A stretch of DNA of 64,000 nt from Psilocybe cubensis (GCA_017499595.2 CM038999.1:3596001-3660000), one strand, 5' to 3'; counted from the stretch's first letter, positions 32,878 through 57,578 are shown. Made by a program: numbers and translations. Notes: generated by a model from the letters alone, not told the origin.

Positions 32878-33121
32878 TGGTACATCATACCTTTCAAATG
32901 CAATTCTGGGGTTAGACATAGAAGGGTATGTCAAAGGAAGTGCATTGCCTCGCGAAAGAAAAATATATATGCAGTCATTATACTTGCCTCTGCAATAGAA
33001 ACACAAACACAAACACGTCGCGGTCAAGATTGACGTCATATCTATTATGATACAGTTTAGGGCAGGTCAAAACGTGGTGTTTGGGACGGCAATGGTTTTA
33101 GAAAATCAACAAACAAGAAAA

Positions 33122-36056
33122 TTAAACACCAAGAGAGAGCAATTCCCCACTAGCAACTTCAAGTCTTTCCAGCTTCTTTTGAAGGTCTGCACGTCTGTCA
33201 GCAACCTGAGGACTCTCCTGAGCCATCTCCATGCAGATGCGATGTCCATCTACACCGTTGATCCCAAGATTAGAGTATAAGACGCTGAGGATGTTTCGCT
33301 CAGCGCCACGAACAAGGTCAAGGTCGATCGCAAGCGGAACGTTGTCAGTGAAGCGTTTGTAGGCAACTAGAAGGACATGTTGTCAGTGATGAAGTTATAT
33401 TAATAGCGATGGTAGAGAACCTTGGAAGTATGCCCTGACATCTGCCATAATGTTCAAAGCGGGTTCCATTGGGTCAGGCGGGAGCAACTTGGCGAGGTCA
33501 TGGGCGGCGACCCCGGACAAACCTGCTTCGGCCAATCCAGCTAGAGCTTTTGCAATTCCTGTGGGTTCTGTGGCATGTCTGGAGGAGCTAGACACTGGAA
33601 CTGGGTTTACTTTATATCGAGTAATGGAGTCAATGACATCCGGCTGTTCGTACTTCTCGCGCGCGCTCTTATAGTGAGCAAGAAACTTCGCACGATAATC
33701 TGCGAGGTAGTGCGTGTTCAAAGAAAATGGTAGCTCTTCGAGTTTGATGAGCCAGATAATGCGCTCTTCGGTACGCTCGAGGCATTGCTTCAGATGTTGC
33801 TGGACGATGGTTCTGAAAGAAAGTCAGAGTACGAATCTGTTGATAAAAGGAAAACGCTTACCTGACACGCTGCTCCAAATGTCCCTGTCCAAATTCACCA
33901 AAATGCTCTTTGATGAGATCTTTGATATTGTCCGAGACAATATTATGAACAATTTTGCAAAGGATTTGAGCCGGTGCCTGCCACTCTTTGACAATGCTGT
34001 CAATAAACATCCTCTGAACAACAAAAGGGTAATGTCCAGGCAATTCTCGAGTGCGTGCCCTGAGCAAGTACGATGTTCATATTAATAAAAGATACAAATC
34101 GAGGTAGAAACATACCGTTGAGCTCTGTCCAATACGTCATCGACATAGATTATGTCGTCCGCCGGAGTCTTGCGCTTGCACAGGGACGCCCATGAAACCT
34201 CATTACTACTATCCCCACTACCACTGTCGTCGCTTGTGTTCCCTTCCTCGTTTCGAAGGAATGCAGGAGCAGGAAGGTGTTTTGTAGCCGCATCAATCCG
34301 TTTGAATGGCCTAAAATTAGGAGAGGTTCGACGAATCTCCCTCCTGAATCGTTCTTGGGCAGGATGAATAGCCTGCATAAGGCCTATGCCAGTGCCGGAC
34401 GTGGATGGGTCATCGGAGACTCCTTCGACATGGCGTAAAAAATCGCTGGTAAATTTATGTAAGAGGGCCAAAATCTCGCTGCGTGGATTGGAGGATGGGG
34501 CCGGGGGAAGTTTGGAAAGCAGACCACGAGTCAATATGATCGACTTCTCGAGCTCATCTTGGATTTGCGGCAGCCTAAAGATGGCAATCCGATTAGAAAA
34601 AAAAGAGCGGATGACAAATTTTGACATACCTTTTTGAAATCAAATCGGATAGGACGTTGCTCAGCCGTTCAACAAGGTTGCTTGTGCGAAGGTACTTCTG
34701 ATAAAGTCCTTCGAGCTCGCACCAGGGTGCTTTGGATGAAAAGAAATCATTTTCCATTTGACGGGCTTCAGACCACGTGATGTTGCGTTTCAAGTCATTT
34801 GACGAGGGCTGTTTGACACAAAACCAGTTGTTTTCCAATGTCTCCTTCTCATTTCTGATGAATGGAAGCCAGTTGGACTCTTCTCCGAGTGGAATACGAT
34901 CCGGCTTCGTCAAGACACCTTGAAATGAATGAAATTTGAGTAAGGTGGTAATAGGTAATTCTCAAGAGCAACTAACCTATAGTACGTTTTCCATCTGGAT
35001 CATAGTGTTTGGCTAGACGGTGCGCGCCTTGGTTTTCAAAGTCGGCTATGAACAGGAGTGTGAGAGGTTGCAAAGTAACAAAATAGGTTATGGGCTTACT
35101 TTCGCAGGCAACTGTCAGGAGAATAATGCAGCTTGGCTTCTTGATGTAAGTCGTTACAAGGCTTTCGACCAGGGCAATGTCATTACCACTTCCACGGCTG
35201 CTGCTGCTGACACTGGCAATGAGGCCTGTCGAGAAGAAAGAAACAATCAACGACTACAACCATAATAAACAATGCCACTACATACCTGGGAGATCGCAGA
35301 AAGAAAGATCGGCAACATCTGGGCCGCTGATCTGCAGGGTCACAGCATTCAGCGAAAAGCTCAGCTGAGAATCCAGAAGTTCCTCCTCTTGATCATCATC
35401 CAGGAAAAACTTCGCCGGCTTTGTTGGGTTGAGAATGGCACGTTGTGCTCTGCGGATTCGATCTTCGACTTCGGACTTGTCGTAGATGATGGCACCGAAG
35501 GGCTCGTTACGGGCTTGGCCTAGGGGTTGACCATTAGCGTCGGTGGTAAACCTTAGGGAGACAACGCATTTCCATGCAGAGTCGCTACGCGACAATCTGC
35601 ATTCTGTCGGACAACTAAACCACTGGGGCATGAGCGAACATGATATACAAACCACAAAATATGACACGTACCGAGTGCAGGTACCAGCAGCACGAGGGAG
35701 GGTAATTCCAGAGATAGACTCTATGAGTGACGACTTTCCAGCGCTCTGTGAACCGATGACAGCAATTTGAGGGAGGTCTATGTCGACTTGCACGCTTTTG
35801 GGTTATATTCATCATACATGCGAAACAGGAATGCAAGAAAAAGTGCTTACCCAGTGCTGTGGAGTTTGTTAACAAGATCCAGCATTTTCCTTCTCCCACC
35901 GCTAAGCTGGGGGTTGGCAAGACCAACTCCATTGCTGTGCGATGGTAAGACCGTGTCCACGGAAGACAGGTCATTCGGAGAACTGATATGCGGTGGAGAG
36001 CTGGAGCCTCTGTCCGTCGAAATGCTCATACTTGAGGTGGATAGGGAATCAGACAT
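33122..36056 (-). CDS. Mx-like dynamin-family GTPase, copy A
   Basis: G1 LPQIAVIGSQSAGKSSLIESISG, G2 TCTRCPTE, G3 DLPG and G4 GVLTKPD. Stalk motif RTRELPG. GED region AYFQVAYKRFTDNVPLAID...RRADLQKKLERLEVA...LGV* (stop at 33122). Nine GT-AG introns identified. Confidence 0.93.
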
Positions 36057-37817
36057 GTGAGATGGTGAGATGGGGATGAAAAAATATCGCGATGATTTAT
36101 AGGGGAAAGGATTGCGATCTAGCTCATAATTTTGAGGATACATGGAGACGGATAATAAATTTCGGGTTTATTTACCTTCTATTGCGGTTCATACTTTAAA
36201 GGCGGGTATCCTATACCTTTGATGTTGGTTAAATGGCAGTCGCAAAAAAGTCTAATTTCCTTAGCCTGTTGGTTCACAGACCAAAAACATTTTATTACTC
36301 ACCACGCTTTGACAAACAGGTTGCTGCCATAGAGATATCCCACAGTGCTCTAGTAGTTGTATATGAACAGGCCCGTTACGATTGCACTTGAAGGCGTTCA
36401 TGGTAAAAGCTTTCAAGGGTAAGATGGATGGTGAAGAAGCGGGAGAATTCTGGAACACGGCAATGTAATCACACCTTCCCACGCTCGATACCCTTCAACA
36501 TCGGCCTAATGGGGGTCGGCTTGCCATAAGATCTGAGCGCTAATTGGTTCCAGAACAAACTAAGCGCCAATATTTCATGTTCCACCGCAACTCGGCCGGT
36601 CAACAGGCTCATTGGAACAACCCGTAATAACGGTAGAGATAAGCATATGGCTGCCAAAACGACCGGCCGGATGTAGATTTTCATTCCAATGAATGGTCTT
36701 ATTTAGTGTTACTGAGCAATGAGCCTCTTGGTCTGATCGCAATGCGGAGATGTTTGGACGCAGTAATGTACGTCCCGTCGCATTTTGTGGAGGTCAGTAA
36801 TCCTCGCAAGATTGAATGTTTTCAAAAGCGGTATTAACCAGAGATATATCTCGCCGTCACATTTCAACCTACTTCATAATCAGTCTGCTTAAAGAACTAC
36901 TCAAATAAATGGACAAGCTAACTAGTATGTCGCAAAGATGTTCACGTCCAGAAATTACATAGCACGAGAGCCGGATCCCTGTACAGGAAGGAAAATGTGA
37001 GGACGGCCAGTAAGGATTATTTGACAAAGATACGTGCAAAATTTGCGCAGCGCACAATCATAATACTCCGTCAACTCCTAACCCTATCCTTTGTGAGGCT
37101 TTCAACACGACTTCAGCATAAGCTTAGTGCGCGCTACCCCACCCCTCGCGCTGTCCACTTCTGTCAGGCTTGTGCATCCCCAGTTTCATCCCTTCCAGGG
37201 GTCCGTAGGTCGGTAGAACGCTGCAATTTTCGTCATGGTATTCGATAGGCAGATGAATAACTAGACACGACCGATACGGTCACAGCGACACCGTGTTCTC
37301 TGATAGTGGAAGAGCAAGTGGCTTTGTAGAGAATGCATAGTTTTGAGAAGGGCCGGGATGGTAAATCAATATTGTCGGAACTATGCATAAGTGCGATAGG
37401 AGCCTTTTTCCTCCAGCTTACATGGCTAGTCATACACAGTAGGCGTGTCTCAGCAATGTAGCATATAGTAGCAAGTTGTGGCGAGAAAGGTTCCATGGAA
37501 GCCCACTCGTACCCAGCGTTTCTGACTAATCACCTTTTCAATGTCCGAGTAGACGCGTCAAGCCTCAAGTGACTTTACATCTCGGACGCCAACAAATCTA
37601 ACCAACCTTACGTATCCTGAATCTCCTCTAATGCCCATACAATGTGTGGCGTGGGCTCACATCTATGCTGTGTTGTTGGCTGTGTAAAGTTTTGTGCATT
37701 TTCGGCACATGCTCATGCACCTTACACCTTTATAAACTCTTCAACATCTTCCAAACTTTGCCACAAAATGAATTTTCACAGGTGAAAATCTTTGAGATTT
37801 TAATAGACTAACAACTG

Positions 37818-40800
37818 CTACTTTCCCATATAGATAAACGGGACCCATCGACGGAACGAGACTTTATTGCTCCGCAATTCCTGGACTGCAGTATGGAGTG
37901 CATACGCAGACTTTGTCACGTCCGGGACAGTTGCCCTTTGTCCATCATTAGTACCAAGAAGCTCGCGGTAGAAGACATTTGCAATAGTTGGCCCATCGTC
38001 GTCTCGCATTGCCCTAAAACACAGATTATGACCACGTTAAAACGGTACTAGCCAAAGCTTTGTTTTCCATCGAACTTACCACATGGTAGCAACGACCCTT
38101 TCAAAACCAGAGAAGAGCAAACTCGCACCGATATTCATCGCCTCGTCTGGAAGCTTCTCATCACCCATGGCAGTTTCGCAAGCACAAAGGAAGGCAAGCG
38201 ATCCGTTGCGCATATTTTCTTTCATGATTCGGGATATCCGAAGTATCCCGTCATCGAGCTTCAATCCACTGTCGAGCGGTTTAAATGGATCTTGCATCCC
38301 ATGACAGGCGAAGTGGACGACAGAAATATCAGCAAGGCGGGAAGCAACATCTTCGACTCCTGCAGGCGATCCAGCAACACCTAATTCAATGAGAAAATTG
38401 GGAGATACGTGCTGTCGAATATTCATTAATTCGATTTCGGTGGAAGGGAGCTCATGAGATTGTATCACGGTCATCATCCGGAAGTTGTCAGGAGCAGGCG
38501 CATATGGCCGTGAAAGTAGAGCACCGATGGTGGGAGTGTACGTTGAAATAAAGTAATCGAGTGCGCATTCAGTAGCTGGATAGCCCCCATAGCGCCCAGC
38601 CGCATGTAGCGGGAGAAAGGTGAAATAGCCTGTGGGACACCACTGTAAGATAGGCTTCGGTGTTGATGTCTAGAGCAGAACATCAGTAAGCGGTACGCAT
38701 AACAGTCGGGAGTACTGACCTTGATATTGAGGTAATCAATTACTGGTTTCACTAATTCATCCCATAACATGCCCAAAACAAATCTGAAAGCCTCGTCGGA
38801 GTCTTCGCTGTCATTTTGATAACTTATTCCCCTTTCCTCGCCTAAAAGTCTGGCTATTGTTTCTTGGGTTTCGTCGATCAATGACCGCGGAATCGTAGTC
38901 TGAGAGACAGCCGTTCGAACGTTATCAACAAGGACTTTCAGAACAGGGGTGCGCAAATTTGGGAGGGGTATGTGATGAATGTTTGACGCTGTCATGATGA
39001 GGCAGTGACTCTTGTCATCATTGGAGACGAGCAAGATAATCGGATGTTGAACTGCAGCATGTTTGAGGGATGAAAAACGGGGCGGGGTTAGAAAATCTTC
39101 AAACCCCTCTATTTTTCTGACTGCGATGACAGTCTCTTCCCATTCTTCACTAAGCGCCGTCATTCGTGACGTTTCTTGTTCGATGGAAATTTTCCTCTCG
39201 TTATCGAACAGTTCAGTAGAGGCAATACGATGAGATCCTGCCTCTAGAGCAGCAGCAACATTTCGTAATTTATTGGCAAGTTCAGGCCCATTGGGTTCGA
39301 TGCTGAGCAATCGGTCAACGGGTGACCTGAGAGACAAGACTTGGGACCAGAATACACTACGCCCTCCTTCCAGCAACTCTATAGCCAGCTCAAAGTTTCC
39401 CGCATCAATCGCGCAGCTAGATGCATCACGCGCTAGTCCGTCACTTCCCGCAGCTAAAGCCTTGTGTCGCGATTCTACACTGAGACTCAGAGCCGCTACC
39501 TGAGGTAATGCTCGCAGTGCAGCTTGATATGCAGTGATGGCAGAGCCATGTTGGTTTCGTTTGGCTTCCGCTATCCATCGTTTTGCAACGCGGAGTCGGT
39601 AGGATGAAGATTGGTATAGATATTGTGTAGCATCAAGGAACAAAGACATTGCTTCTTCTAAGTCTTTGCCTTGACCCCTATTTTGGTATCGGATTGACAA
39701 TTCATAGGCAAGATTGTGAAGAGACGCAGATCGATCAGGATGCGGAGAAGGTCGCAAACCCAATGCTTCTCTATGCAAATGGATGGACTCGTCGTGATCC
39801 TCGTATTTGCCTGTTTCTTTACATTGGGTCGCCAGCGCTCTGGCAAGGTTGTTAAGTGTAATGGGACGAAGAGGATGGGACAATGGTTGGTATTCAAGTG
39901 CTTGTCTAAGGAGGGTAATAGACTCATCCAGGTCGTCGCGTTGGCCTCGAGCAAGAAATCGGGTTGACAAAAGGTTTCCTAAATTCGTTAACACAATAAA
40001 TCTATAGGGATGGGATGGAGAAAAGAGTAGCAGCGCTTCTCTATTAAGGGATATAGCTTCATCAAGGTTTCCGGGTTCATGTGTTTGTTCGTATCGGGTA
40101 CCTAATGCACTCGCGAGATTTGTCAAAAATGAGGGTCGAGCAGAGTGAGACGGCGACTGTCGTTCAAGGGCTTGCCGATGGAGTGAAATGGATTCTTCTA
40201 GGTCTTGTTGCTCTCTACTTCGCAGAAAGCGATCCAATAAAGAATTGGCTAGTCGCGAAAGGGTTTCGGCTCGTTGTGCATGCGATAAAGGTACGAGTTC
40301 AACAGCCTGCCTAAAAAGAGAGACCGATTCATCAAGGTCGCGGCGTTGGCCTCTGTAGTCAAACCGCATTGATAGCCCATAACCAAGTTGTTTCAGAGCA
40401 CCGACCTTACCAAGGTGTGAGGAAGGAAGAATTTCCAAAGCCATTACGCTCAACGAAATAGATTCGTCGAGGTCATCTTGCCGGCCTTGTTGCTGGAATC
40501 GAGTCAGCAACGCGCTTGCAAGATTTATGAGCGAGCCAGGCCGGTCTGAGTGCGGCGCCTGGCGGAGCTCGAGGGCTCGCCTACCAACAGAAATGGCATA
40601 GTCAAGATCACGCTGTTCGCCTTCTCGTCTAAATCTGGCCAGAAGCGAAGATGCGAACTGATTGAGTAGTGTAGATAATAGTGGATGTGATGCAGAGAAA
40701 AGGTTGCTCTTTGATGCTTGTTCCAAGGCTGAGGATGGATTATTAATGGATTGGGATGGAAGAAATGGGTCAAGAGCTTCTTGATGAAGTGATATTGCCT

Positions 40801-43800
40801 CGTCCAAGTCACTTATGTCGTTCTTCTGTTCGAAGCGTGTGAATAGGGCGCCTGCCAGATTGATCAACGAACCGAGCCGATCAGGATGTGGAGGAGGCTC
40901 AAGCGCTAAGACTTGTTTATGATAAGAAATGACTCTGTCGAGGTCACTTTGTTGGCTGTCTTGTTCGAACCGGACCATAAGCGAAACTACCAGAGCACGA
41001 AGCAAGATTGGTCGATGGAGATGAGATGAGAGTTGAGGCTCCCGTACACTCTCTAGAATGGATATAGATTCATTGAGATCATTCCGCTGGCCTCTATGAT
41101 GAAACCGGGTACACAGACAAGTTCCAAGATTGATCATGACGACAGAACGATTGGGATGGGTTTCAGGGAAGAGTTCCAATGCCTCTCTATTCAGGCTAAT
41201 GGCTTCATCAAGGTCAGCATTTTTGCTGGCTTGTGAAAACCTGCATAACAACGCATCTGCGAGATTGGTTAATGAGGAAGCGCGGTCGGGATGAGGTGGA
41301 GGCCGGAGTGGAAGGGATTGTCGATAAAGAGAAATTGCGCCGTCCAAATCGTTTTTCTGGCCATCTTGTTTAAATCGGGTCAATAGAGAACCAGCAAGGC
41401 AGCCAAGTGACATTGATCGATATGGGTCAGACGGTGATTGAAGTTCGAGGGCTTTTCCCAGAATTGAGATAGATTCATCCAAGTCGCTCCGTTCGCCTTT
41501 ATGACTGAACCGGATCCATAATGCTTGCCCATAATTGATAAGAATCCTGGACCGGCTAAGATGGGACGATAAATTGAGTTCAAGAGCTTCTTTGTTCAGT
41601 CGAATAGCTTCGTCAAGGTCGAATTGTTGACCACGCTTCTGAAATCGAGTAAACAATGAAATTGCAAGATTTGCTAAGGAGCCAGGGCGATCTGGGTGGT
41701 TTAACGGTCGCAATTCGAGGACTTGTTCAAAGAGAGTGACAGATTCGTCTAGGTCGTGCTGTTTTCCTCCTATAGCAAACCGAGTTAGAAAAGAATTCGC
41801 AAGGTTCGTGAGACATGTACATCTATGTGGATGAGAAGACTTTTGTAACTTGAGAGCTTCTTGAAGGAGAGAGATGGATTCATCGAGATCACCCTGGTGC
41901 CCTGTGTGACGGAATCTAGTTGACAGAGCTCGACCAAGGTTGATCAGAGGGTTTATTCGAGTGGAAAGTGACGGGAGGATCAAAGAGAGAGCCTCCCTGT
42001 CAAGCTTTATCGCTTCGTCAAGATCACTTATTTGATTACCTTGTTCAAATCTGGTGAACAACGCATTTGCAAGGTTGGTCAAAGAGCCGGACCGGTCAGG
42101 ATGAGGTGATCGTCGGAGTTCAAGGGCTTGCTGTTGCAGTGAAATGGCTTTGTCAAGGTCAAGTTGATTACCTTGGCTATGATATTGGTATATCAGCGAA
42201 TTTGCAAGGCTGCTAAGTGATATAGGGCGCAGGGGATGGGGTGGAGACTGAAGTACAAGTGCTTGCTCGAGTAGAGACATAGATTCAACAAGGTCATCTT
42301 GGAGGCCGCGATGGCGAAATCGGGTTGAGAGTACTTGCCCAAGATTCATCAACACTTTGGATCGGCTGGGATGTGGTGGACGCAGTATCTCGAGGGCTTC
42401 CCTGTTTAAAGATACTGACTCGTCAAGGTCATCGAGTTGACCGGCTTGTTCGAAACGTGTCAATAAGGAATTGGCCAGGTTGATGAGGCAACTAGCTTTT
42501 TCAGGATCCGAAGGATTGTGCAATTTCAATGCTTGTCGATGCATAGAAATGGAATCGTTGAGATCTTGTAGGTCGCCTTTTTGATTGAACCGAGTCAATA
42601 AAGAGTTTGCAAAATTGGTAAGAGTTGATGATTGTTCCGATCCCAAAGACTGTTGAATTTTCATAGATTGTCTGAGAAGAGAAATAGATTCATCGAGATC
42701 GTCGGGTTGACCTTCGTGGCGAAATCGAGCAGAGAGTACAACACCAAGATTCTCCATAAAGCCATGTCGATTAGGATGTGATAGAGGGGCAAGATCTAGA
42801 GATCTCCTGCTAAGAGCAATGGCTTCGTCAAGGTCATCTAGTTCACCCTCTTGCTTGAATTTGGTTGACAACGCTTGTGCGAGGTTGGACAAATGAAGAG
42901 GTAGATCGAAATGAGGGGGATGTTGTAACTCAATAATTTGCCTAAACAAAGAAATGGCTTGTTCCAGATCACCCTCTTCACCTTTAACTCTGAATCGGTC
43001 CAATAAGACTGCCGCTAAAAGATCGATGACAAGTAAACGATCGCCACACCACCGAGGTAAAGTTTGAACCCCTTCTCGACAGATTTTCTCTGCATTATTA
43101 AGGGCCTGTAGGTCTCCCGACTTCATAAATTTCTTGTAAAGCTCTCTGGCAGACTGAAATCGTTCCAGGACATCGACGACGACCTCAAGTGGCCATTCAT
43201 CCATCCAAATCGATGATGTTCTTTGAACGTAGGATATATCGCCTGATGTATCAAGCCGGGAAGCTAGCATTCCGTGGATGCAGAATCGTAACATGGATAG
43301 TCTATCGTCTCCTTGGGGAATATACGTGAGGGCGTCCTGCAGGCTAGATATGGCCAAATTGAAATCATCTTCGGCTGTATCGGAGCAGATGAGGAAACGG
43401 GTGAATACTGCCTTGGCCAGTGTCGTCAAAGCCACAACTTTGGTATCAACATTGGACGAAAGATATAAAAGCGATTGCTGCACCATATCAATGACAGTGT
43501 TCAGAACATGAAGAGGAATGGATCTGTGAAAGTCGACTAAGTGAGCCTTTCCCAATCTCATCTCTGCGTTGCTTTCATCCAGAGGTGTCTATGTGTCCAT
43601 CTAATAAGCATGTATATTGGTTTTATATGAGAAAAACGCTTACATTATCAGTAGTATCGAATTCGTAGATTTCGGCAGTCTTGAGGGGAAGACGTGATGC
43701 TTCCAAAAAGTCGCCTATCTGATAGGTGTACATGAACCTAACACTTAACGAAGATATGAGATTGAACGTGGCTTCGGCGTAGAGTGGATGGGGCGCTGTA

Positions 43801-44288
43801 TAACGATTGGAAACTTGACGGAACAGCAAGACGGCTGCGTCAAGTTTTGAGAACGACAACCCTCCTAGACATTCTTCCAACATAGAGGTAGCACAACGCA
43901 CAGCCTCTAATGCATCTTCCTCGTCGCGAATCAAGGTCTATCCAATGGCTAAGATTAGCCACGCTGCGACGAAAGATGTGTCGATACTCGGAATGACATA
44001 CAACGTTTGCTGAGGAAGACTTTGGCTGCGTGTTGTAATTTGACCTCAATCATTCAATTATGAAGAGTGAACATGAACGTACTGAGTCTTGTAAACTTAA
44101 TTTCGTGTTTGATTCCTCATCGTTGCTGATCGTTGTTGTCTGTTGATATCACGATTAGGAGACGCATAAGACCAGTCTGGCGCTGTAGCACGAACCAGAA
44201 CTCTTTGATGAGAGGCAAAACAAGATTCAGTTGAAAGCGTAGAACACGGCTGAAGTCGCTGTTCTTGGATTTGTTTAGGATCTATCAT
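37818..44288 (-). CDS. TPR-repeat/CHAT (caspase-HetF associated with TPRs) protease
   Basis: Four short 5' exons starting at ATG 44288 splice in frame into the ~4.9-kb repeat exon. About 25 repeats of 45 aa are followed by AIELLEGGRSVFWSQ, LWDELVKPV, WCPTGYFTFLPLHAAG, catalytic His VVHFACHG, catalytic Cys AFLCACETA, GFERVVATMW and WVPFIYMGK*. Confidence 0.93.
39665..43100 (-). repeat. Coding tandem array of ~25 TPR-like 45-aa (135-bp) units in the CHAT protein
   Basis: Consensus DLDE(S/A)ISLxRxALEL..PxHPxR...LxNL(A/G)xxLxTRF..xG.. read directly from the 1695-aa ORF. Confidence 0.95.
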
Positions 44289-44648: not shown

Positions 44649-47019
44649 TCATCCGCGTTGAACCAACGGCACCGTAAGTACATCCCAGGTATCATCAGAC
44701 CCATTTAGAGCTCGCTTGAGCGGCCTACCATCATAGGGCCTGCTTTGACGAGCAATTCCCCGCCACACTCCGTTAGTGTCCCGAACCAAAGGAGGAGGTT
44801 GCACGATACTTGACAGTCCACCGCCTAGATACTTTTTCGAGATAAAAATCTTCAAAAATCCGATGTCAAGGGACTGCCCTTCATAAAGCTGCAAGCGAAG
44901 GAGTTTCCCGCCTCCGTTTCTGAAATTGAGAGCGACCGGCGTTGGGCCTGTGCCCTCCACGCAGGCTGGTAACGTTGGATCGACCACGGCGGAACCTTTT
45001 GAAACAGGTGGATCATAAAAAGATCCTGAGAGAGTACAACATCTAAGAAAGATAGTAGGATAAAAAGTTAGCACTCACCGATTTCCAGGGTGCTGCAATC
45101 AAAGAAAAAAACCCATGCAAATAACGGAAATTTAGTCTTATTGACAATTTCAATGCCATATGCCGGAATACTATTGCTTTGAGATCCAGCCATCGCAGCT
45201 TCAACTTCGTATGCTCCATGTGCGGCAGTTGGAAGACGACGCTTGAATTTCATTTCTCGCCGAATTTTCCCGTTGACTATCTCATATGAGCTGCTGTCTT
45301 CCAGCTCGCAGAGAAACACTTCTACTCCATCCTTAAGATTTCCACTTTGCGATTCGCGGTTTAGATGGTCGAAGAAATGAGCCGCGGAGCGAAGCACCCG
45401 TCGTACTCGAGGAGAATCTAGAGATAGTGTGAATTGCAAACCATCTAATCCAAATTTTCCCACTTTGGATTTCTTTGGGTAAAGGAAAGCAATCTCGCCA
45501 TCCCTGATGTCCAAGGTAAGATCCCAATCCAGGTTATCAACTGGGCTTGTAACATCAAAGCAAAGCTGGGGTCGTCCAAATTGATCTTCAGGGTTCTCCC
45601 GCTGTATGGCGTCTTTGACACAGGAGACTATCGAATCATCTCCAACGTGAACAAAAAACTTGCTTGGTGAAGCAACCCTGGGGGAGGCAACAGCTGACTC
45701 GTACTCTATCAGCTTGAGTTCTTCTTCACTGCATATCAGAGAAGAAGTGGTAGCACCAACGGCCCCTACTACGAAATTTCCAATAAGAGTGCTGTTAATG
45801 CTAAACACCTTCGAAGTATAGACCCCGTATTCAGTTCCAGTATGCACGCCAACCATACCACCAGCGCACAAGATAAGTTTACCATTATCCTTAATGACGT
45901 CAAACGTAGGGCGTCCAACGTTGATCTCCTTCAAATCGAAAAGCATGCTGTGTTTACTATTTCCTTCGCACAATGGATGCTGCCTATCTCTCTCTGATCA
46001 ATAACACAACAGTATAGAGACGTTAAAAGTACTCACTGACTAGATTTCAAAACGACACCTCGAATGAGTCCAACATACGAAAGGGCGCTCAGGTTGATAG
46101 TATCCTTTTTTAAATAATTTAAAAGACCTTGAGTGAAGGAATAGCCATCGGATGCCCTTTCTTCAGAACCACAGGCAGCGAGTAGGACATGTGATTCGAG
46201 GCCAGCGTGGCGATACTTATAATCAATCACGGCTCCTCTGTTGAAGTCGATGAATTTCTCCCAGATTGACATTTGATAATCACCTGGAACAGTGATAGGT
46301 TTTCCTTCTGGGCTACTGAATTCGATTCCACGAAAGAGCTCCGAAGCATCACGAGTGCCAGATCCGGAGTGGCAACAATCAAGAATTATTGTCTGAATTG
46401 CGACTTGAGCATAAATAGAGGGGGATCATAAAAGCGACACACGCACGATATTGCTCCCTTTCTTGTCAGCCAAGTTGTGGAGGAGAGCAGCAAGAGTGCG
46501 GTCGAGCACAACGCCGCTGGCGAAGTGCCGATGATTCTCTTTCGAAACTTGTGCATCAGCCGCGACGATACATTGAATCTTGGTCTTCTCCGGCCATCCT
46601 CCTTCAGGTTCCTTCCGACTGTATCCAGGCCAACCTTCGGGGGGAGGTATTGACGCGCCATGGCCAGAGTAATAGATCAGTATCGCGTCGTTCTTCTTAA
46701 CCAATGGGTCGATTTCCAGTTTTCTTATGGCATCTATAATTTTTGAATGAGTGGCAGCCTCGTTTGTCAATTCTCGTATATCGAGCTGGGAGCCTTCTGG
46801 AACATCGAAAGAAGAAAGCAGAAAGTCCTTCATATACACCATATCGCGAACGGCCCCGTTCAAAGAGGATATTCTAGCCGAATATTTATCAATTCCAATG
46901 AGGAGAGCGTGAAAGCTAGTACGCCACTTAGTTAACAGAGAATTGTCAAGAGACCGATATTTCTCTTACTTTTCCCAGTTCAAATGACCCAGACGCCGGG
47001 GAGTCCGAATACTGTCCAT
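44649..47019 (-). CDS. Caspase-like protease (Peptidase C14 fold) with a long C-terminal extension
   Basis: FHALLIGIDKY...LNGAVRD...LTNEAATHSKII; catalytic His ILIYYSGHG; catalytic Cys IILDCCHSGSGTR (~46350-46390); p10-like SHVLLAAC...FTQGLL...QHPLCEG. About 430 further residues follow, including YGIEIVNKTKFPLFAWVFFFD and DIGFLKIFIS. Confidence 0.9.
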
Positions 47020-47765
47020 TTCTCTCGACGAATATGCAGCTGTAACGAGCGGTGGTGCGTCACTCGAGCAGCAAAAAAATATTTCTCCAAAAACCCAGGA
47101 ACTCTCGGAGATAGGGTGAATTTGATGACGATAATGACAATGTAAGAGAACTCCGAAGTTTGAATGTTTCCCTCTTATGTGTGTTGTAAATCTTTCCGAG
47201 GACGCGCCAATGTGTACATGAGGCACCCGCGTGGTCTAGGATGCAGTGCGATCAGGTTTAAGTTTTTTTGGAAACAAATGATATGAAGATATTGGTTGTT
47301 ATAGGTCGTTGCACAACTTCAATGCTACGAAAGGGAAACAAAAACTCACCACTGTTCGTCCATCACCTCTGACAGCACTGCTTTGTCGACACTGCGCGGC
47401 CAAACCAAGGTGTGAAAGTCACAAAGCGGTGTAAAACTCTTGCAGGTGCGTATGTCTTGACTCTTGAGGTAGTCGATATATGGAGGTATTCTAATGAAAG
47501 AACGATGCTATGAGTGGCTATGCGTGCACCCTGCGTGCGCCTATGCCTTAAGTTAGTACGGTCAACTTTTGGCATATTGCCTCTTCTGCCAATTTCAACA
47601 GCGTCGTCGCAAAATAAATGTAGTATTGAAAATAGTAAGAGGTGTATTAATAATTCCAAGAGGATGTACAAAGTGAGGAGGAGAGACGTGGGAGTCCTTG
47701 TTGCCGGAACGGGAATGCGCTCTCAACTTCAATAAGGTCACGTGCACTATAACCCGTTAGCGAGC

Positions 47766-50590
47766 CTAGGCACCAAGGCGACCAGAAAGTTGTTTTTGTG
47801 CACTTTCCAGCCTCTCCAGCTTTTTCTCCAGGTCTGCACGTCGGTCCGCAACCTGTGGACTCTCCAACGCAAACTCTTTGCTGATCTCATAACCCCTAGC
47901 TGTGTTTGTTCCTAGATCATCAGAAATCTTCTTCAGCAAGTCCCTCGTCAATCCTTTCACAAGCTCGCGGTCGATGGAAAGGGGGACGTTGTCCGCGAAT
48001 CGTTTATAAGCCACTGCACGAGAACACATTTTAAGAAAGGCGACAAAATAGGGGGTTCAAAAGCGGAACTGACCTTGGAAATATGCCCGAACGTCGGACA
48101 TGATGTTCAACGCTGGTTCCATCTCGTCAGAGGGCAACAACTTCTGCAGATCGATGATGTTGAGTCCTTGTAAGCCCAGAGCAGCCAGCGCCGCCAGCGC
48201 TTGAGGAATTTGTGGATTATTTTCTTCACTCAAAGTCGACATCAACCCTGAGCCAGTGTAACGTTGCCGCTCTCCCTTATAATATGCCAGGAACTTTTCT
48301 TTGTAATCAGCGAAGTAATGCGTATTCAACGAGAACGGATCTTCTTCTAACTCGAGAAGCCATGAGATTTTGTTTTCAGCGTTCGACCTGCATTGTTCGA
48401 TGTGCTGGCGCATTATCGACCTGACAACATGGAATCAGTGAATGTTATTCAAAAATTCTGGTTGAATATGATTCATATCGACGGAAACTTACCTGATGCT
48501 ATGCTCGAGATGACCTTGCCCAAAATCCTTGAAGTGTTTTTCTACAAGATTCTGAACATGTACTAGCATGCTTCCGTAAACAGTCTTGCAGAGCTCCAGA
48601 GCAGGCGCCCTCCATTCTTTGATCACAGATTCAATGAATGTCTTCTGAACAACGTATGGGAAATGGCCAGGCAACTCTCTTGTTCGAGCACTACCATGGA
48701 TAAACATACAGTTTAGCTTCCTGCTACAGGATAAAAAAGTTCACACATACCGATTTGCCCTTTCCATAACATCATCAATATAGATCTTATTGTTAGGAAG
48801 AGCCTTCCTCTTCGACGACCTTGAGCTGGAGACATCGCTGAGGCTGTCACTCGGCGTCAACTCCTGCTCTCTTGGTTCACGATCTTCATCCTCGCTCTCC
48901 TCATTGTCCCACACCTGACCTTCTTCTTCGACAAGAAACTCCGCCCTCGAAATATGCCTTTGTTCTTCGTACTTCCTCTCAAACGGCCGGAATTGGGGCG
49001 CAGTCGCGCGTATGGCTCTCCGGAACCGTTCCTGAGCGGGTCGGATGACCTGCAACAATCCATTTTCGTCCGGCACACCCTCTACATGCCTACCCAAGTC
49101 GGTGACAAAGTTATATACCAAGGACGCGATCTCGCTTTGCGGATTGGCAGGGGGCGGAGGGGGCAGTCGCTGGAGCTCCTTTCTGCATGTGTTGATGCTC
49201 GCGTCGAGCTCGTTGAAGATTTCAGGCAACCTGTTAAAAGCGAACTATATCAAGGGAGAAAACATTGTTATCAACAAAAAGATTGCTCACCGCTTGGCAA
49301 TCAAGTCAGACAACACTGAGCTTAACCTGTTCACTAAGTTGACAGTTCGCAAGTGCTTTTGGTACAGGGCATCGAGTTCGTTCCAGGGCGCAGCTGCCGA
49401 AAAGAATTCATTTTCTTTCTGTCTTACATCCGCCCAGGTCGTGATTTGCTTCAACTCGTGGGAGCTCGGTTGTTTAACGCAGAACCAGCCATTCTCAAGC
49501 GGTTCCTTCTCATTGCGAATGAAGGGGATCCAGTTGGATTCTTCGCCAGTTGGAATGCGATCGGGTTTGGTCAGGACACCGATCGTTCTCTTGCCTTCCG
49601 GGTCGTACTGTTTTGTGAGACGATGCGCGCCTTGGTTTTCGAAATCGGCTAATAGGAGGTTTTAGAAAGAAAAAATATATGTGTTATCGAAAGCGTACTT
49701 TCGCAAGCGACTGTCAATAGAATGATGCAGTTGGGCTTTTTAATGTATGTAGTGACCAGATTCTGAACAAGAGCGATGTCATTCCCATCTCCAGAACCAC
49801 TTGCTTGACTCGCAATCAATCCTAGAAAACATATAGCAGTCAGTGCTAGAACATTTCAAGTGCCAAGGGAACCTACCTGGTAGATCAACGAAAGAAAGAT
49901 CGGCCACATCAGGGCCACTAATCTGCAAGCTTACAGCATTGATGGAAAAGCTCAATTGCGGTTTCAAATCTTCGAAGTCTGTTTCCTCTAAAAAGTACTT
50001 GAGGGGTTTGTTTGGATTCAAGATTGCGAGTTGAGCCCTCCTGATACGATCTTCGACTTGGCTTTTATCGTAGATGACACTCCCAAATACTGGGTTTTGA
50101 GCTTGACCCAATACTTGGCCTGAAGCGTCCGTGATATAACGCAGTGAAACAATACATTGCCATGGGGCGTTGCTCTTTGATAACTTGCATTCGGTGGGGC
50201 ATCTAGATGGTGAATACAAAGGGTCGGTAAACGAAGAAAGTGTGACTAAAAAACGAAAGACGTACCGAGTACAAGTACCAGCGGCGCGCGGCAAAGTAAT
50301 CCCAGATATGCTCTCTATCAGAGACGACTTGCCGGCACTTTGAGAGCCAATGACAGCAATTTGGGGAAGATCGATGTCGACTTGAACACTACAAATGTCA
50401 TTGAGTTTGTTAGATTAAAGAATACAGACATTGGACGGGCGTACCCAGTAGAGTGGAGGCGGTTGACTAGATCAAGCATATGCCTCCTGCCTTGAGAAAT
50501 GGCGGGATTGGAAAGTCCGACTCCAGAGTTACTGCCGCCATGGTCGTCTGATACCTTCATCGGCATGGGAGTAGAAACAGATTCAAGCAT
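47766..50590 (-). CDS. Mx-like dynamin-family GTPase, copy B
   Basis: Same G1-G4 motifs as copy A (IDLPQIAVIGSQSAGKSSLIE; TCTRCPTE; DLPG; VLTKPD), plus RTRELPG and GED AYKRFADNVPLSID...RRADLEKKLERLESA; stop at 47766. Confidence 0.93.
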
Positions 50591-51203
50591 TGGGGGATAA
50601 AGATGAAAAAAAAAGTGGGGACGAATAAAAAGAAAACGACGCGTCTTTGTTTATGAACCCCTTTCTTCCGGCGACCTTGCTTCTAATCAATGATTCGTTG
50701 CACTCTGTAAAAGAAAAAGCGCGATCCCGCGACCACGTTTTCGAGTCGAGCTCGGATCCCACCAAGATTTCGGTCGTTTTGGGAGCCTGTTTGGCCTAGG
50801 AAGCACGCGAAGCATGTTTCTGAAGAGTCGGACGGGCGCTTGATTGAACAGGAATCGCATTTTGGGAGTATGAACAACTAATCTTAGGTAAAAATACAGT
50901 ACTGAGAGTAATAAGCATTGGACGGCGTCAGTGGAAGTAGATAAGCTCGAGGTTGGACAACAAGTTTGGGCAAGCAATTGAACACTGAGCGATGGCTGAT
51001 GCTGTGTGGTTTGCATGGTGGAACCAAACAACACTGGCGGGCCGTCGCCGTCCAGCATTCACTTGGCTTCTACTTTTCGACTGGAACACCTCTTCTGTTC
51101 TGTTTGCCGTCGCTCAAGGCTTCACCTATCCGGTCTTTAGTTCAAGATATACATAGTCTTTTAATTACTCATACTTTGTCTGGTTTCGAAACCTCAAGCC
51201 AGC

Positions 51204-52230
51204 ATGGATCCTTTTGAAGTAAGGATGCAGTTTATACAATTTCTTCGTCGACTAAATGCGTCAGTATCTCTTCTAGTTTTGCCTGTACGGTTGCTAAACC
51301 TCAAGTTTTCCCACCAAGGACAGCTCACAGCAGTCGATACAAAAGGTCGTCAGCTATGCGATCAAAAACTTCGAGTGCAAAGACGACATCTGGGACTGCA
51401 TTATTGAAGAAACCCAAAAGGTGAGAGCCCCCACCGCCACCTCTTCAACCGCTCTGAAACTGATATGGCGTCGAAAAAAGGGGTCTATCAACTCCCGAAT
51501 AAACATCCTCTATTTCCTCGACTCGCTCTGCGAGACATGCCTTATGGTCAAGTCCCATTCGAAATCCGAAAGCTCGCGAGCCGCAAGCGCGAACGGCCTA
51601 TACGTCGAATTGGTGACCCGGGATCTCAACCGAATCATTGATTCCATCGTCCCAGAGGGAAGACAAGGCCTCCCAAACCTCGTCAGCACAAAACAGGTAC
51701 GCTGAGACCTGCTTAGGTTTTTTCAACCCTACCATTCCTTGCTCCCCCTCATATTTTTTTCGCATTCGAAGATCCTCGAAAACTGGCGCAGCAAACGCTA
51801 CATCGATCCCCAAAAGATCGATGACGTTTTTTCGTCGCTGGATTCCCGCCCAAAAATCGCCTCGTCAAGCACAGCCGAATCGTTAAAACGTCCATTGTCC
51901 CCTCAGCAAACCCTGTCCCGGAATGAAGTCAACAAGCGCATTGAGCAGGACCGCGAACGCCATAAACGACTGCGGGAGCGACGATGGGTCCAGCCAATAT
52001 CACGAAACCCCTCTTTTCAGCCTCCACAGCTGGCCTCGTTCTATCCCCTCACGGATGGGCCAGAGGAGGTTCCGATTGATATTGAGTTTGAAAACGAGTG
52101 GGAGACGACAAGTGACTGGAACGAAGATGACGAGGATGCCATTGCAGAGGAGGATCAACTCGCATTCGGGTCAAGTAGTAAAGAAGACAATAAAATCAGT
52201 TTTCTTAGTCGTCGAGGGGTGAAAGTCTAA
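51204..52230 (+). CDS. CTK3: CTD kinase I subunit gamma
   Basis: MDPFEVRMQFIQFLRRLNAS|QQSIQKVVSYA...DIWDCIIEE...GSINSRINILYFLDSL, and C-terminal KRIEQDRERHKRLRERRW...EFENEWE; both are characteristic CTK3 and CTK3_C motifs. Confidence 0.9.
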
Positions 52231-52893
52231 CCCCCTTTGTCATACATACCCAGTGTACGGTTCTCCTTTACCCATTGTACTATTATTTCATTACAGAAAA
52301 GATAATGTTACAAGCACCGCATAAAAACTAGAGAGTGAAGGTTGCATTTCTCCCTACAGAGGCCACAGCTTGGGCATGGGATTGTTTCTATCATTTCTTC
52401 AATCTTTTGTCCCTCGACCTCGGGCTTCAATGCTCAACTCCTGGTTCTGAGCCCTCGAAAATGTAAGTTCACTGGGAACGCATTTTTGGCCAGTTGCCTT
52501 TTTGCGCTCAGGGTTAGTCTTTGAACAAGCAGAACGCATGTATGGTCAAAATCACATTAACAATTCAACAACATAATTGACAACTATTTAAATCACAAAG
52601 TCTGCATATAAAATACAATGGATGGTAAAGGAGATCAACTATAGCACAACATACAAGCAAAGCGGAGCGAATAACCTGAGGACGAAGCAGAGATGAACAT
52701 GAACATAACAACATAGCACTACAGAAAGCAGAACGAGAAGAAAAACGCCAGGTAAAGCTAACGAGAGCTCTGAAAATATCATAAAGGTGCATAGTGCTGA
52801 CGGGAAGTCACAAACAGATACTGAAAGAACAAGTTGCAATTAGAGCAGGAAAACAGAGTAGACGGACTGCGAGAGCTCCGTACCTGGATATCA

Positions 52894-55800
52894 TTAACGG
52901 TAAGAATCCCGAAGCGTTTGAGCTTCCTCGCGAAGAGCCTTTGCCTCGTCAAGATCGCTTTGTTGGCCGTCTTTTTTGTACCTGGCTTCAAATGCTTTGG
53001 CCAATTCGTCGAGAATCCCAGGTCGACGACGATGAGGTGCAGGTTTAGATTCTAAGGCTTCTTTGAAGAGACGGATAGATTTGTCAATGTCACTAGGCTC
53101 GCCTCCATGCTCAAATCGAATACGTAGCGCATTTGCAAAACTTTGGTTTCTTGAGGATTTATTGGGAGATTTAAGCTCAACAGCTTGCTCGTGAAGGATG
53201 ATTGATTGGTCAATATCGGCTTGCTCGCCACCTACGCGTTCAAAACGACATTGCAGAGCATGCGCCAGACAAGTAAGTATCCCCGCCCAGGCAGAATGGT
53301 TGGGGATTTGAAGATCTAACGCTTCAGTAAGTAGAAGGACAGACTCCTGGATATCATTCTGGTCATTATATTGTTCGAATCGGTGAATGAGAAAATATGC
53401 CAAAGCGTCGACTGTGTAGTGTCGATTCGGATGGCTTGAAGATTGAAGCTCCAGTACGTTTCGGCTGATAGAAATTGATTCGTCGATGTCAGATTTTTGT
53501 CCTCCATTTTCGAAGCGAGTGAACAATGCATAAGCCAGGTCATTCAGCGACGAAGGCCGGTCCAGATGAAGGGGAGGTTGTAGCTCCAGGGCTTGCCTGT
53601 GCAAAGCAATGGATTCTTGAATATCAGATTCATCGCCTCCATTTTCAAAGCGTGCGGCGAGTGTATTGGCCAGTCTGCTTAGTAACGGAGGCCGGTTTGG
53701 ATGAGACAGAGGTTGAAGCTCCAGTGCTTGCCTTACCAAAGCAATGGATTCTTCAATGTCAGATTCATCGCCTCCATTGTCAAAACGAACAGAGAGTGAG
53801 TTGGCCAGGCTGCTTAGCAACAAAGACCGGTTTGGACGAGACAGGGGTTGAAGCTCCAGTGCTTGCCTGAGCAAAGCAATGGATTCTTCAATGTCAGATT
53901 CATCGCCTCCATTTTCAAAACGAACAGAGAGTGAGTCGGCCAAGTTGCTTACTAACAACGGCCGGTCTGTGTGATGCGGAGGTTGAAGCTCCAGTGCTTG
54001 CCTGAGCAAAGCAATGGATTCCTGGAGGTCAGATTGTTTGTCTCCATGTTCAAAGCGAACGGATAGTGCATTAGCAAGGTTGCATAGCGACACAGGTCGG
54101 TCTGGATGAAATCGAGGTTGGAGCGCCAGAGCTTGCCTGAGTGACGCTATGGATTCTTCAATGTCGGATTGCTGGCCTCCATTTCTGAAACGAGCGGAAA
54201 ACGCGTTAGCCAGGTTGTTTAACAACCATGGCCGGTCTGGATGGGACATTGGTCCAACCTCCAGAGCTTGCTTGCTCAGAATAATGGATTCCTCGATATC
54301 AGACCATTTTCCTTCCTCTTCAAAACGAGCCAAAAGTGCATTTGTTAAGTGAGTTAGAGTCGAAGACCTGTCTGGATGAGGGGAAGGTCGAAGCTCCAGT
54401 GTTTGTCTGTGTAACGCAATGCATTCATCAAGGTCGGATTGGTTGCCTCCGTAATCGAAGCGAGTCATGAGTGAAATGGCCAGGTTGCTTAGCAAAAAAG
54501 GGTGAATGGGATGAGGCGGAGGACGAAGCTCCAGAGCTCGCCTGTGCAAAGCAATGGATTCCTCGATGTCGGATTGTTTGCCTGCATTTTGAAAGCGAGC
54601 TGAGAGTGCACAGGCAAAGTTATGTAAAACGAAATCCTCCGGGTGTCGTTCAAGGTAGTCGTAGTGCTTGTAGAATGAGATGGCTTGGTTTAGATCGTCC
54701 ATATTTCCCCCTCTGTTGGAAAACCTTGTTTGCAGCTCATATGCATGATCATACAGTAATTCCAGGTAACGAGGGGCGTCTTCTGGTATGTTCATTGAGG
54801 GCCCATCATCAATTGGATATGTATATCGGTCGATTTCTTTCAACAGTGCAAGCCGTATTTCTAGGTGTCCTCGTTGTTTGTCTCGCATACCTGCAACGAA
54901 AAGGCTTAGGAGTTCAAGAAGAACATTGACCCTGTGCTCATTAGATAATTCATGAAATGAAATCAATTTGATGTAGGTCCCATCCATCCATCCAGGGTAT
55001 GAGTACGACGTTCCATCGTCCGATGGTGTTGCCATCAACAAGTTGAGGAACGCTAGTGCTAGCGCCTTGATGGAATGGATACGGCCACTCGAAAAGCTTG
55101 ACTCAGCAGATCTCTGCAAAGCCTCCATGTGCCTCTTGATCTCGGCGTTTGCGATATTTTGACGTCTTTCCGAGTTAGCTATAATAGAGTTAATGATCAA
55201 TGTATCCGCATGAAATATAGCATGGTAATGTTATCTTACCAAAGTGGTATAAAAATTTGAGACATGCATCAGGATTGTTTTCGAACAACTTCTCAAAGAC
55301 TGCTTGAGCGTCGGCAGCTACTTCTATTGGCTTTCTTGGGAATAAACTAAAGCATCTGTCCAAGGTTTTTGCGATGGTTGAAATATGTTTAGGGATTCGT
55401 TCAGATGTTCTGTCAAAGGTCCCGATCTCGTGAACCAAGGCTGAGGCTAGAATGGTTTCCGCATCTTGTCGTTCACGAATGACGCGTAGTCCAATGTCTA
55501 GAATGCAAGTATCATCAAAAACATGCCATTTGTGATATTGAGGGAACACAATATTTTACCTTGCAATGATGCGGTATACAGAACATCGTAATCCGCCTCT
55601 AGTCCGAGTTGCTCCCTTGTGTCAGACGTTATTTGATGCCCAGCAGTTGTCTTTTGAATTCGATCAAGAACAGTGCTGGGTTGGATGTATGGATCATTCT
55701 CAATGATATTGTGTAAACCGTCCCAGTGGTCCCAGCTTCGACCAGACCCATTTCGAAAACATGCCAAGGGTTTGTTCATTGAACCGGTATATGAATCGCG

Positions 55801-57578
55801 TACTGATTCGTGAATCAACTGGCCAGGCATGATGCGCCGCGGCGCTTGTTTGTGAAGACTGTAGAACATATCAGTTTGTCTGTAAAAAACAGGTATTAGG
55901 GTTTAATAACCTTCTTGTCACATCATTCGGACCAGTATACGAAAGGCGCTTAAATGGAATATACTCGGCAATTTTCCACAACCCAGTCATGGAGGACTGA
56001 GGATACAGTGGTTGCCACGATTGATCAAATGGTGTCGTGCGAAGACCCCAGGTAATACTTTCATAGGTCATCCATCGAAGAGCAGGGCCAAATTTGTTGG
56101 CGTCTAAATTTTCAATGTTCCCACCTCCACTGCAAAAATATTGTGAGAAGGAGATTTGACTGAACAATCGAGAAAACATTATTTACACGTCAGAATGACA
56201 TCCTGCGAACCACACTTCCTTTACATTTCCCCTCGTTGTTTTGGGTTTGTGCTCAGGTTCGGCAGCGACATCGGGTTTGGTCCCATTTTCATGCTTCGAA
56301 ATAGGCGCTTCCACTGATGTATGTCCGTGCTGAGGACCCTCGCCGCCGTTAACGTACTCGGGTAGAAATTTGACTCTCAACTCGTCAAGAGCCAAAGCAT
56401 GCCGAAATACGCAGACATGCGCCATTCCGGTCGTTGTTTCCGGTAAACTTTCCCTGCGTACGACACCAACCGAAGACACTGTGTCCCTTGGTTAACAAAC
56501 CAAGTTGAGCGTGACACTTTGCATGACATGTTTGAAACGCTTACCAGCAGCCAACAAAATGAACTTTGACCCCGGTATGCGATAACGTCCTTTTAAAGGA
56601 CCGGCATACAGTCTCTGAGTCCTCGATGGCACGTAATGTTTTGGTGGGTTTATGTCTAGTTGCTGTAGCTACCGCCCGAGGAACAGAGTTAGAAAGTGAA
56701 GTGGCCATCCGATGAAAGACTTGGTTTGTGCCGGATCCTTCGGTCCCTGTTGTAGCAGCAGGCTCTTGTCGTTTTTGATTTGCTTTGAGTTTGATGTAAA
56801 GATCGTAAGCACTGGATAGTTCCCATCCCGTGGCTCAGATTCAAATTAACGAAACGGAGACAAACCGTCTACTCACAAAGGGATTTGTTGTTTGTTGCCT
56901 TTGTGGAGAAGCCCGACCTACGATGTTGTTTAATTCTGAATATCACACTATTTTGAATTGATAGTCGTACCTTTTCAATCATTCCTGCAATGATTCGAAC
57001 TTGGTAAGCGCCGCGAGAAAATCCTATAAAGGGGTGACAGCAATGTTAGCTGTGTCTGGCACATATTGGCAAAAAGCTGCCCACCGAATAGATAGATCCT
57101 ATCTCCTGCTTTATAATTCTCTGAAAGCCATTCATATGCGTCGAGCACATTGTTCTCGATATTCCTAGGTTTGTGATAGTTGTAGATGAGATATCGTACT
57201 GGTAGTGATGTTGTTTATTGCATTACCTTCCAATAGCCATTTCGAAAGCTTGTGTTAGGAACGAGGGCTTTGCTTTGCCAGCGTGGGTCCCTATCCCACT
57301 GTTGTAGTAGGTGAGTTGGGTGTCATCTTTCACAAGCCGGCTGTAAAGTTCCACCACATTTGTATTCTGTTAGGTCCTGGTCAGTGTGTCAACAGGGGGC
57401 GGAAGTCGATTAATCGTACCTGCATGCCAAATTTATTGGCCGTTCCATCGACACATACGACCAGATTTCTACCAAATTCTCCATTTTCAAGGCGTTTACA
57501 AGAACAAGATGAGGTCTGTAAGCTTCTGGGCGAAATCAAAGTCGGGCCTTCAGCTTTTTGCAGTTTGCTCTTTTCCAT
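52894..57578 (-). CDS. DUF2235 (T6SS Tle1-like alpha/beta-hydrolase, putative phospholipase) fused to a C-terminal TPR array
   Basis: RNLVVCVDGTANKFG; NTNVVELY; YYNSGIGT; AYEWLSENYKAGDRIYLFGFSRGAYQVR (nucleophile Ser); VHFVGCWDTVSSVG; FRHALALDE; VKEVWFAGCHSDVGGG. Canonical introns link this region to the 52894-55200 TPR exon. Confidence 0.9.
52950..54700 (-). repeat. Coding tandem array of ~13 TPR-like 45-aa units in the DUF2235 protein
   Basis: GCAATGGATTC recurs at 53606, 53741, 53876 and 54011, an exact 135-bp period. Protein unit: DIEESIALLRQALELQP..HP.R..LL..LA.SL..RFENGGDES. Confidence 0.95.

Follow-up and report, generated by a model that had tools for sequence, protein, structure and literature searches.

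Do immune-associated genes that lie side by side in a mushroom genome form one defence system, or are they members of large families that have come to lie together? The question is raised by a 24.5-kb block at positions 33122-57578 of a 64,000-nucleotide stretch of Psilocybe cubensis DNA (GCA_017499595.2 CM038999.1:3596001-3660000), here called the window, which is fungal DNA rich in short introns. Five minus-strand genes make up the block: two Mx-like dynamin genes (MxA and MxB), a gene for a TPR-CHAT protein, a caspase-like gene (Peptidase_C14, hereafter C14) and a gene joining a DUF2235/Tle1-like hydrolase to a TPR array (DUF2235-TPR). An earlier reading of the DNA alone (the sequence-only reading) had taken them for an integrated module with the dynamins or the lipase as membrane effectors. 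The present analysis points elsewhere. We give somewhat better than an even chance to the view that the block is a lineage-specific co-location of separately acting genes, drawn from large families that evolve fast and have links to immunity or regulated cell death, and set next to a plastic, putatively transposon-like region, and that it is not a conserved module.

All five genes were recovered at the positions first proposed, by Pfam scans of stop-to-stop open reading frames (ORFs) and by splice models. The block begins at the stop codon of MxA (33122-36143) and runs through TPR-CHAT (37818-44288), the caspase-like gene (44649-47019) and MxB (47766-50590) to the DUF2235-TPR gene (52894-57578), whose ATG marks the other end at 57578. 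The sole interruption, again as the sequence-only reading had it, is the housekeeping gene CTK3 (CTD kinase subunit gamma, 51204-52230) on the plus strand. Also borne out were the intact catalytic motifs, those of the Mx, CHAT, C14 and DUF2235 domains all being found, and the claim that the TPR genes encode no NACHT or NB-ARC domain: Pfam and motif scans of TPR-CHAT and of DUF2235-TPR returned neither a match to a nucleotide-binding oligomerization domain (NOD) nor a Walker A motif (GxxxxGK[ST]) in either gene.

Recurrent linkage of the component families, the absence of which the sequence-only reading had listed among the signs of chance juxtaposition, was not observed in other genomes. When metagenomes were scanned with nine aligned Mx-like proteins, 80 loci of 191 confirmed relatives were retained, with 306,030 nt of flanking sequence in total; at least 3 kb of flank was present on at least one side at 28 of the 80 loci and at least 5 kb at 16, and the set is partly redundant (L072-L074; L054/L055). 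Searches of these loci by tblastn (E<=1e-5) with five C14 and 11 TPR-CHAT queries gave no match near Mx at any of the 80. The same was true of hidden Markov models (HMMs) for C14 and CHAT at E<=0.01 and of the DUF2235 exons of the window, while the window itself, as positive control, was matched strongly by the same queries and HMMs. Pfam assigned families to 14 of 20 long ORFs in the flanks of the Mx loci, none of them CHAT, C14, TPR or DUF2235; the families present were UTP20, photolyase, PrpF, NUDIX, kinase, glycosyltransferase, GDA1/CD39, RNase H, HET (two), DUF2828/DUF7788 (two) and CTK3 (one). Two named genomes, P. cyanescens and Galerina marginata, gave the same picture, their best Mx, C14 and TPR-CHAT homologues being spread over contigs of different lengths. 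In P. cyanescens, C14 matches lie on contigs of 52,240 and 6,514 nt, TPR-CHAT matches on contigs of 156,359, 56,611 and 26,882 nt and the Mx match on one of 7,917 nt; in Galerina marginata the Mx match is on a 572,400-nt contig and the four TPR-CHAT matches are on contigs of four other lengths.

Gene fusion was examined as a second form of linkage. Peptidase_C14 was found in none of 54 other TPR-CHAT matches, and neither TPR nor CHAT in any of seven long C14 forms, these being seven of the nine forms of at least 1000 aa among the best 150 of 245 representatives; likewise, none of four Pfam-annotated caspase homologues carried CHAT or TPR.

One metagenomic locus (L015, 207-6845) sheds light on the age of the arrangement. 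Here an orthologue of CTK3 (69-80% identity) is separated from an MxA-like gene by 3 kb that include a kinase-like ORF, and the relative orientation of CTK3 and Mx differs from that in the window; no protease or DUF2235 gene was found beside CTK3 and Mx at this locus. Since Mx and CTK3 are kept together there without the rest, the proximity of Mx to CTK3 appears to predate the remaining genes of the block. The block was, moreover, picked from a very large scan, in which one striking juxtaposition is to be expected now and then.

The stretch was found in four public sequencing runs, which inform on transcription and on variation between isolates. X1 and X2 come from one study (the RNA label is a guess, and reliance was placed on spliced joints) and X3 and X4, which are DNA-like, from a second; contig depth and uncovered stretches, such as about 44280-44440 in X1, were given no evidential weight. 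Contigs of X1 and X2 skip segments of 50-114 nt bounded by GT..AG on the gene strand, while those of X3 and X4 run straight through. Among the joints listed (15 of 33), 13 fall in minus-strand genes or untranslated regions (UTRs), comprising seven in MxB, four in TPR-CHAT, a UTR intron at 47236-47349 and a TC..AC joint at 38669-38719, and two fall in CTK3. These joints show that TPR-CHAT, MxB and CTK3 give rise to spliced transcripts. X1 contigs also cover all bins of MxA, and the caspase-like gene is contig-covered as well. In X3 and X4, a single 23.7-kb contig each spans 33100-53099 with the gene order unchanged.

Several observations weigh against simple co-location. Five genes of four immune-associated families on one strand within 24.5 kb, with spacers of only 746, 360 and about 1700 nt, are striking. 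Identity to MxB is just 30-69% among the metagenomic Mx loci, and the flanks of many are short, which leaves close relatives of the locus hardly sampled; the linkage scan was also anchored on Mx genes, not on CHAT or C14 genes. Within 21 kb, one locus (L056, 1-20700) has three HET genes set among at least three copies of Mx, along with fragments of it, and at another (L040, 3278-9818) the HET neighbour of Mx shares about 71% identity with the HET genes of L056. The two loci may represent one lineage, as the samples are similarly numbered, and their Mx-HET neighbours make some non-random association of Mx with cell-death genes possible. Finally, an RNA contig (47099-48013) bridges the 3′ end of MxB and the 5′ region of the caspase-like gene, ending about 80 nt short of the caspase ATG, which means that the two transcripts abut, overlap or arise by read-through. 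The UTR intron already mentioned lies in this region, in the minus-strand interval that separates the stop codon of MxB from the caspase start codon; its joint (47235/47350, CT..AC ends) occurs in both X1 and X2, and the contig continues into MxB exons.

If the co-location reading is right, an old pair of MxF-type GTPase genes would have stood near the housekeeping gene CTK3, and in the Psilocybe cubensis lineage the caspase-like, NOD-less TPR-CHAT and DUF2235-TPR genes would have come to lie between and beside that pair. Going by their families, the TPR arrays would recognize a ligand or stand guard over a target, thereby releasing the attached CHAT protease or Tle1-like hydrolase, the C14 protein would act as a cysteine protease whose C-terminal region is regulatory, and the Mx proteins would be self-assembling GTPases, each product acting separately.

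How much of the block could nevertheless act together depends above all on the two protease genes. The caspase-like and TPR-CHAT genes are the only credible functional unit, because of the analogy with a pair in Podospora, where Q2L-6, a TPR-CHAT protein, cleaves a gasdermin whose gene is adjacent (Q1-6; PMC8851545), and because fungal cell-death pathways are often clusters of two or three genes (PMC12881547, a review). The same Podospora precedent lends substance to the suggestion of the sequence-only reading that a NOD-less TPR-CHAT protein could serve as sensor and protease in one. The two products might then form a cascade or a sensor-executioner pair, with the Mx and DUF2235 genes as bystanders. 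Their tight spacing on a common strand, the spliced contigs of the one and the contig coverage of the other, and the immune-like architectures of the C14 family (Goodbye, an NLR-type domain, with ubiquitin-like fusions in two of the seven long forms) all fit such a unit, as does the fact that an annotation pipeline merged the pair. Yet the closest homologues in P. cyanescens sit on separate contigs, the fusion survey united C14 with TPR or CHAT nowhere outside the window, and no gasdermin-like partner was seen adjacent in Pfam matches or ORF readings; on balance we regard the two-gene unit as unlikely. The merged annotation could instead be taken literally, as a single polypeptide in which an N-terminal caspase-like domain, a TPR array and a C-terminal CHAT domain make up a dual-protease sensor. 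Such a model exists (JR316_0002689, here P0021; 2698 aa, carrying PF00656 and PF12770), and the incomplete listing of joints leaves room for a rare fused isoform. However, the caspase frame meets an in-frame stop codon (44649-44651) directly after ...DVLTVPLVQRG, at the very point where two orthologues, P0001 and P0003, from P. cyanescens and Mycena sanguinolenta, terminate. In addition, X1 and X2 contigs join acceptor 43937 to donor 44002, and they contain a 24-nt exon as well as another exon from 44083. All of this is missing from the public model, which jumps about 710 nt at the junction instead, a jump that the RNA contigs do not use. Five of ten homologous TPR-CHAT proteins, moreover, begin their co-linear alignment at model residues 721-736, which correspond to the junction, each behind a short leader of its own. 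Taken together, the stop codon, the splice joints in RNA and the stand-alone homologues favour two genes, with 360 nt between them on one strand, and a correction of the public annotation; the fused protein is very improbable.

The integrated module of the sequence-only reading asks for most: NOD-less TPR sensors would trigger CHAT and caspase proteolysis, with Mx proteins, the Tle1-like lipase or both as membrane effectors in place of gasdermin. Its components share one orientation, are intact and lie at short distances from one another; a single study's two runs both contain transcripts of TPR-CHAT and MxB; Mx adjoins HET cell-death genes in another lineage; and gasdermin, the usual substrate, was not detected. 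Against it, linkage of Mx with CHAT, C14 or DUF2235 failed to recur at any of the 80 loci or in either named genome, with no C14-TPR/CHAT fusion elsewhere. A housekeeping gene breaks the series and stays by Mx in a relative that has none of the other genes, and no special relationship connects the two TPR arrays. This proposal was thus not upheld, and we consider it improbable. A broader conjecture, equally a long shot, would place fungal Mx genes in cell-death or immune neighbourhoods whose partners change between lineages (HET in L056 and L040, C14 and TPR-CHAT here). The P. cubensis block would then encode a gasdermin-free pathway in which a TPR sensor sets off a CHAT-to-C14 cascade acting on or alongside Mx and the Tle1-like lipase, remodelling or lysing membranes.

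The TPR-CHAT gene consists of short leader exons behind a predicted ATG at 44288, a long exon of 1704 aa (TPR_12 1e-47, TPR_10 6e-37, TPR-S 3.6e-14) and a following exon with the C-terminal CHAT domain (9e-17). The array comprises about 24 repeats of 45 aa each, and the TPR region is 100% identical to that of P. cubensis JR316_0002689. In P0021 numbering, the candidate His and Cys motifs of the CHAT domain are FACHG (residue 2557) and LCACETA (residue 2598), in which we take the catalytic residues to lie. RNA joints were found for 38013-38078, 38669-38719 (the atypical TC..AC joint), 43938-44001 and 44026-44082. The last two enclose a 24-nt micro-exon (44002-44025) in the 5′ part of the transcript, and both are present in X1 and X2. 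The family is large, with 55 matches found; the CHAT and TPR parts, like the DUF2235 part of the neighbouring gene, match no PADLOC model.

In architecture, the gene resembles the HET-Q2-like proteins exemplified by Podospora Q2L-6 and its partner Q1-6, as described in PMC8851545: an N-terminal TPR array, a C-terminal CHAT domain, no NOD and a candidate partner gene adjacent. It differs in that no gasdermin-like gene was detected here; its neighbours are the C14 gene upstream and an Mx-like gene downstream, and any cleavage by its CHAT domain is putative. Gasdermin was absent from the Pfam matches of the ORFs at 33-58 kb, and the spacer at 36.2-37.8 kb holds no long ORF, though small exons may escape such a search. 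Part of this spacer (36919-37393, strand unassigned) is covered by a 589-nt X1 contig whose six-frame reading gave no long ORF and whose two ORFs have no Pfam match; this transcribed segment might belong to a 3′ UTR or represent an RNA of its own. Immediately beside it, at 37393-37432, X3 and X4 carry 159 nt in place of the 38 nt of the window.

The caspase-like gene was identified by Pfam (PF00656, 1.5e-8) and by the PADLOC 'caspase' model (2.7e-25). Its His motif (YYSGHG) lies at residue 98 and its Cys motif (DCCHSG) at residue 178, and the C-terminal region of roughly 430 aa has no Pfam family. That region resembles clusters of bacterial proteins bearing C14 (TM score 0.66 by query, feature score 0.94); an AlphaFold2 model of the family from five sequences (mean pLDDT 33.9, pTM 0.28) was too poor for a fold search. 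Bacterial C14 proteins with a DUF4384-type C-terminus, then, are among the closest known counterparts in protease domain and C-terminal region, as is the PADLOC 'caspase' model for the protease domain. The P. cubensis gene, in contrast, is eukaryotic and intron-bearing; DUF4384 occurs in just 17-23% of cluster members and is a lead, and PADLOC offers no system context for a fungus. A scan of bacterial and archaeal genomes with the caspase alignment gave one locus from 98 pattern matches, which encodes a C14 protein and lacks CHAT in the flanking DNA, the patterns being over-specific to the fungal family. That family counts 245 representatives at E<=1e-30. Among its relatives, P0140, P0150, P0134 and P0080 are fused to further domains, namely Goodbye with ubiquitin-like (two), vWA (one) and a jacalin lectin domain (one).

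MxB was placed by several comparisons. The protein is 100% identical to the public 782-aa 'Interferon-induced GTP-binding protein Mx2 [Psilocybe cubensis]' (P0006), which has Dynamin_N (PF00350), Dynamin_M (PF01031) and GED (PF02212) domains; the MxB exons match Dynamin_N at 4.8e-14, and seven introns are backed by RNA joints. For MxA, which has about eight or nine short introns and an alternative ATG at 36056, the scan was for Dynamin_N (1.1e-12), its continuous spliced ORF ends at 33122, and the protein aligns with MxB over its whole length. Both genes retain GSQSAGKS, TCTRCP (which spans an intron), DLPG and TKPD, the P-loop, switch-threonine, DxxG and TKxD motifs of these GTPases. When solved structures in the PDB were searched with phmmer, MxB scored 156.1 bits against Mx1, 154.3 against Mx2, 113.7 against dynamin-1, 105.9 against Vps1 and 78.9 against Drp1. 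By this ranking of scores, as distinct from a phylogeny, MxB appears nearer to Mx than to other dynamin-family clades and fits the fungal MxF group of PMC11789081. The MxF1 and MxF2 proteins of that paper likewise combine Dynamin_N, Dynamin_M and GED, have human Mx1 and Mx2 as nearest solved relatives and show variable copy number and tandem duplication; the window genes, by comparison, are placed by score as MxF-type and not to subgroup. The one PADLOC match of MxB, to LeoA, covers 28 P-loop residues only (19.8 bits).

MxA and MxB are, to judge from their sequences, old duplicates. Their protein identity ranges by segment from 40 to 71% (54-71% in the GTPase part and 40-57% in the stalk), their nucleotide identity is about 67%, and the Galerina Mx, 69% identical to MxB, is closer to MxB than MxA is. 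Tandem copies are common: pairs with spacers of roughly 0.8-1 kb were seen at three metagenomic loci (L009, L026 and L059), and a larger array at L056. Fungal MxF copy number varies, with three copies in Agaricus bisporus, and the available part of the same report gives no function or gene neighbourhood for fungal Mx copies (PMC11789081). As side observations, a gene with DUF2828 and DUF7788 lies just downstream of an Mx-like gene at two metagenomic loci (L032, 13538-15352; L055, 9471-11435), the two DUF2828 proteins being 76% identical. The MxA region, too, diverges more between isolates than the remainder: X3 and X4 differ from the window by 97 substitutions over 4.3 kb (33100-37393) and by 101 over 15.7 kb (37432-53099), a per-length divergence at MxA and its upstream spacer roughly 3.5-fold that of the latter segment.

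In the DUF2235-TPR gene, exons matching T6SS_Tle1-like_cat (PF09994; 8.6e-15 and 1.7e-6) lie upstream of a TPR exon (TPR_10, 5.9e-24) that contains a tandem repeat of 7.9 units of 135 nt with 71% matches. The Ser, Asp and His motifs are present as GFSRG, WDTV and HSDV|GGG, the first and last being split by introns. The catalytic-domain match and these motifs (the last reading HSDVGGG once joined) are shared with Tle1; the P. cubensis product is instead a fungal, cytosolic-type protein, predicted to be a lipase, that is fused to a long TPR array and has no secretion context. No secretion-system gene was found among the Pfam matches of the window that would suggest a type VI context for this fungal, intron-bearing, TPR-fused gene. 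Its array is 41% identical to that of TPR-CHAT, a match that ranks tenth in the BLASTP output, with arrays from other species reaching 49%. The two arrays are thus not local duplicates but instances of one repeat class combined with different enzyme domains. Fungal NB-ARC-TPR receptors of the NOD-like receptor (NLR) type similarly join an effector-like enzyme domain to a long TPR_10/TPR_12/TPR-S array (PMC12881547), whereas both TPR genes of the block are without a NACHT or NB-ARC match and without Walker A.

Each of these families, and the TPR-CHAT architecture, has been described before, and this neighbourhood is unpublished as far as our searches reach. The sequence-only reading had held a dynamin-CHAT-caspase cluster to be undescribed, and no description was found in the literature searched, including papers that mention both dynamin and the CHAT domain, as far as their available text goes. 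An eLife 2020 paper on conflict systems mentions neither dynamin nor CHAT, none of the papers listed for fungal NLRs mentions DUF2235, and for fungal Mx the search found only PMC11789081. Fungal Mx-like proteins are a recent addition to the literature; were a link of Mx to proteases or cell-death genes true, it would give a first handle on fungal Mx function, and two-gene cell-death clusters of fungi would extend to a non-gasdermin effector. The block also provides a precise, expressed candidate gene set in a cultivable mushroom, and the Mx genes interleaved with HET, or lying beside DUF2828/DUF7788, are leads from other fungi. At the same time, it is a reminder that genes may form a cluster striking to the eye without being a conserved system.

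CTK3 (CTK3 1e-21, CTK3_C 5e-18, with two GT..AG joints) and MxB are transcribed away from each other, with 613 nt from ATG to ATG. The right flank (58553-63730, mixed strands) has long plus-strand ORFs followed by a weak minus-strand Tet_JBP-like ORF (4.8e-5, under the Pfam cut-off). No Pfam family was found in the ORFs at 59205-62963, for which a language model gave leads to clusters with 12-13% of members carrying Plavaka or Transposase_21. On these leads the flank may be read as transposon-like. The pairing of a transposon with a TET gene is known from mushrooms. The left flank (1-32800) carries ordinary genes, among them SRP72 (3-443), a TEA/ATTS factor (16205-16786), a neutral ceramidase (21868-23459) and, with a weak match, an MFS-like transporter (around 32200-32700).

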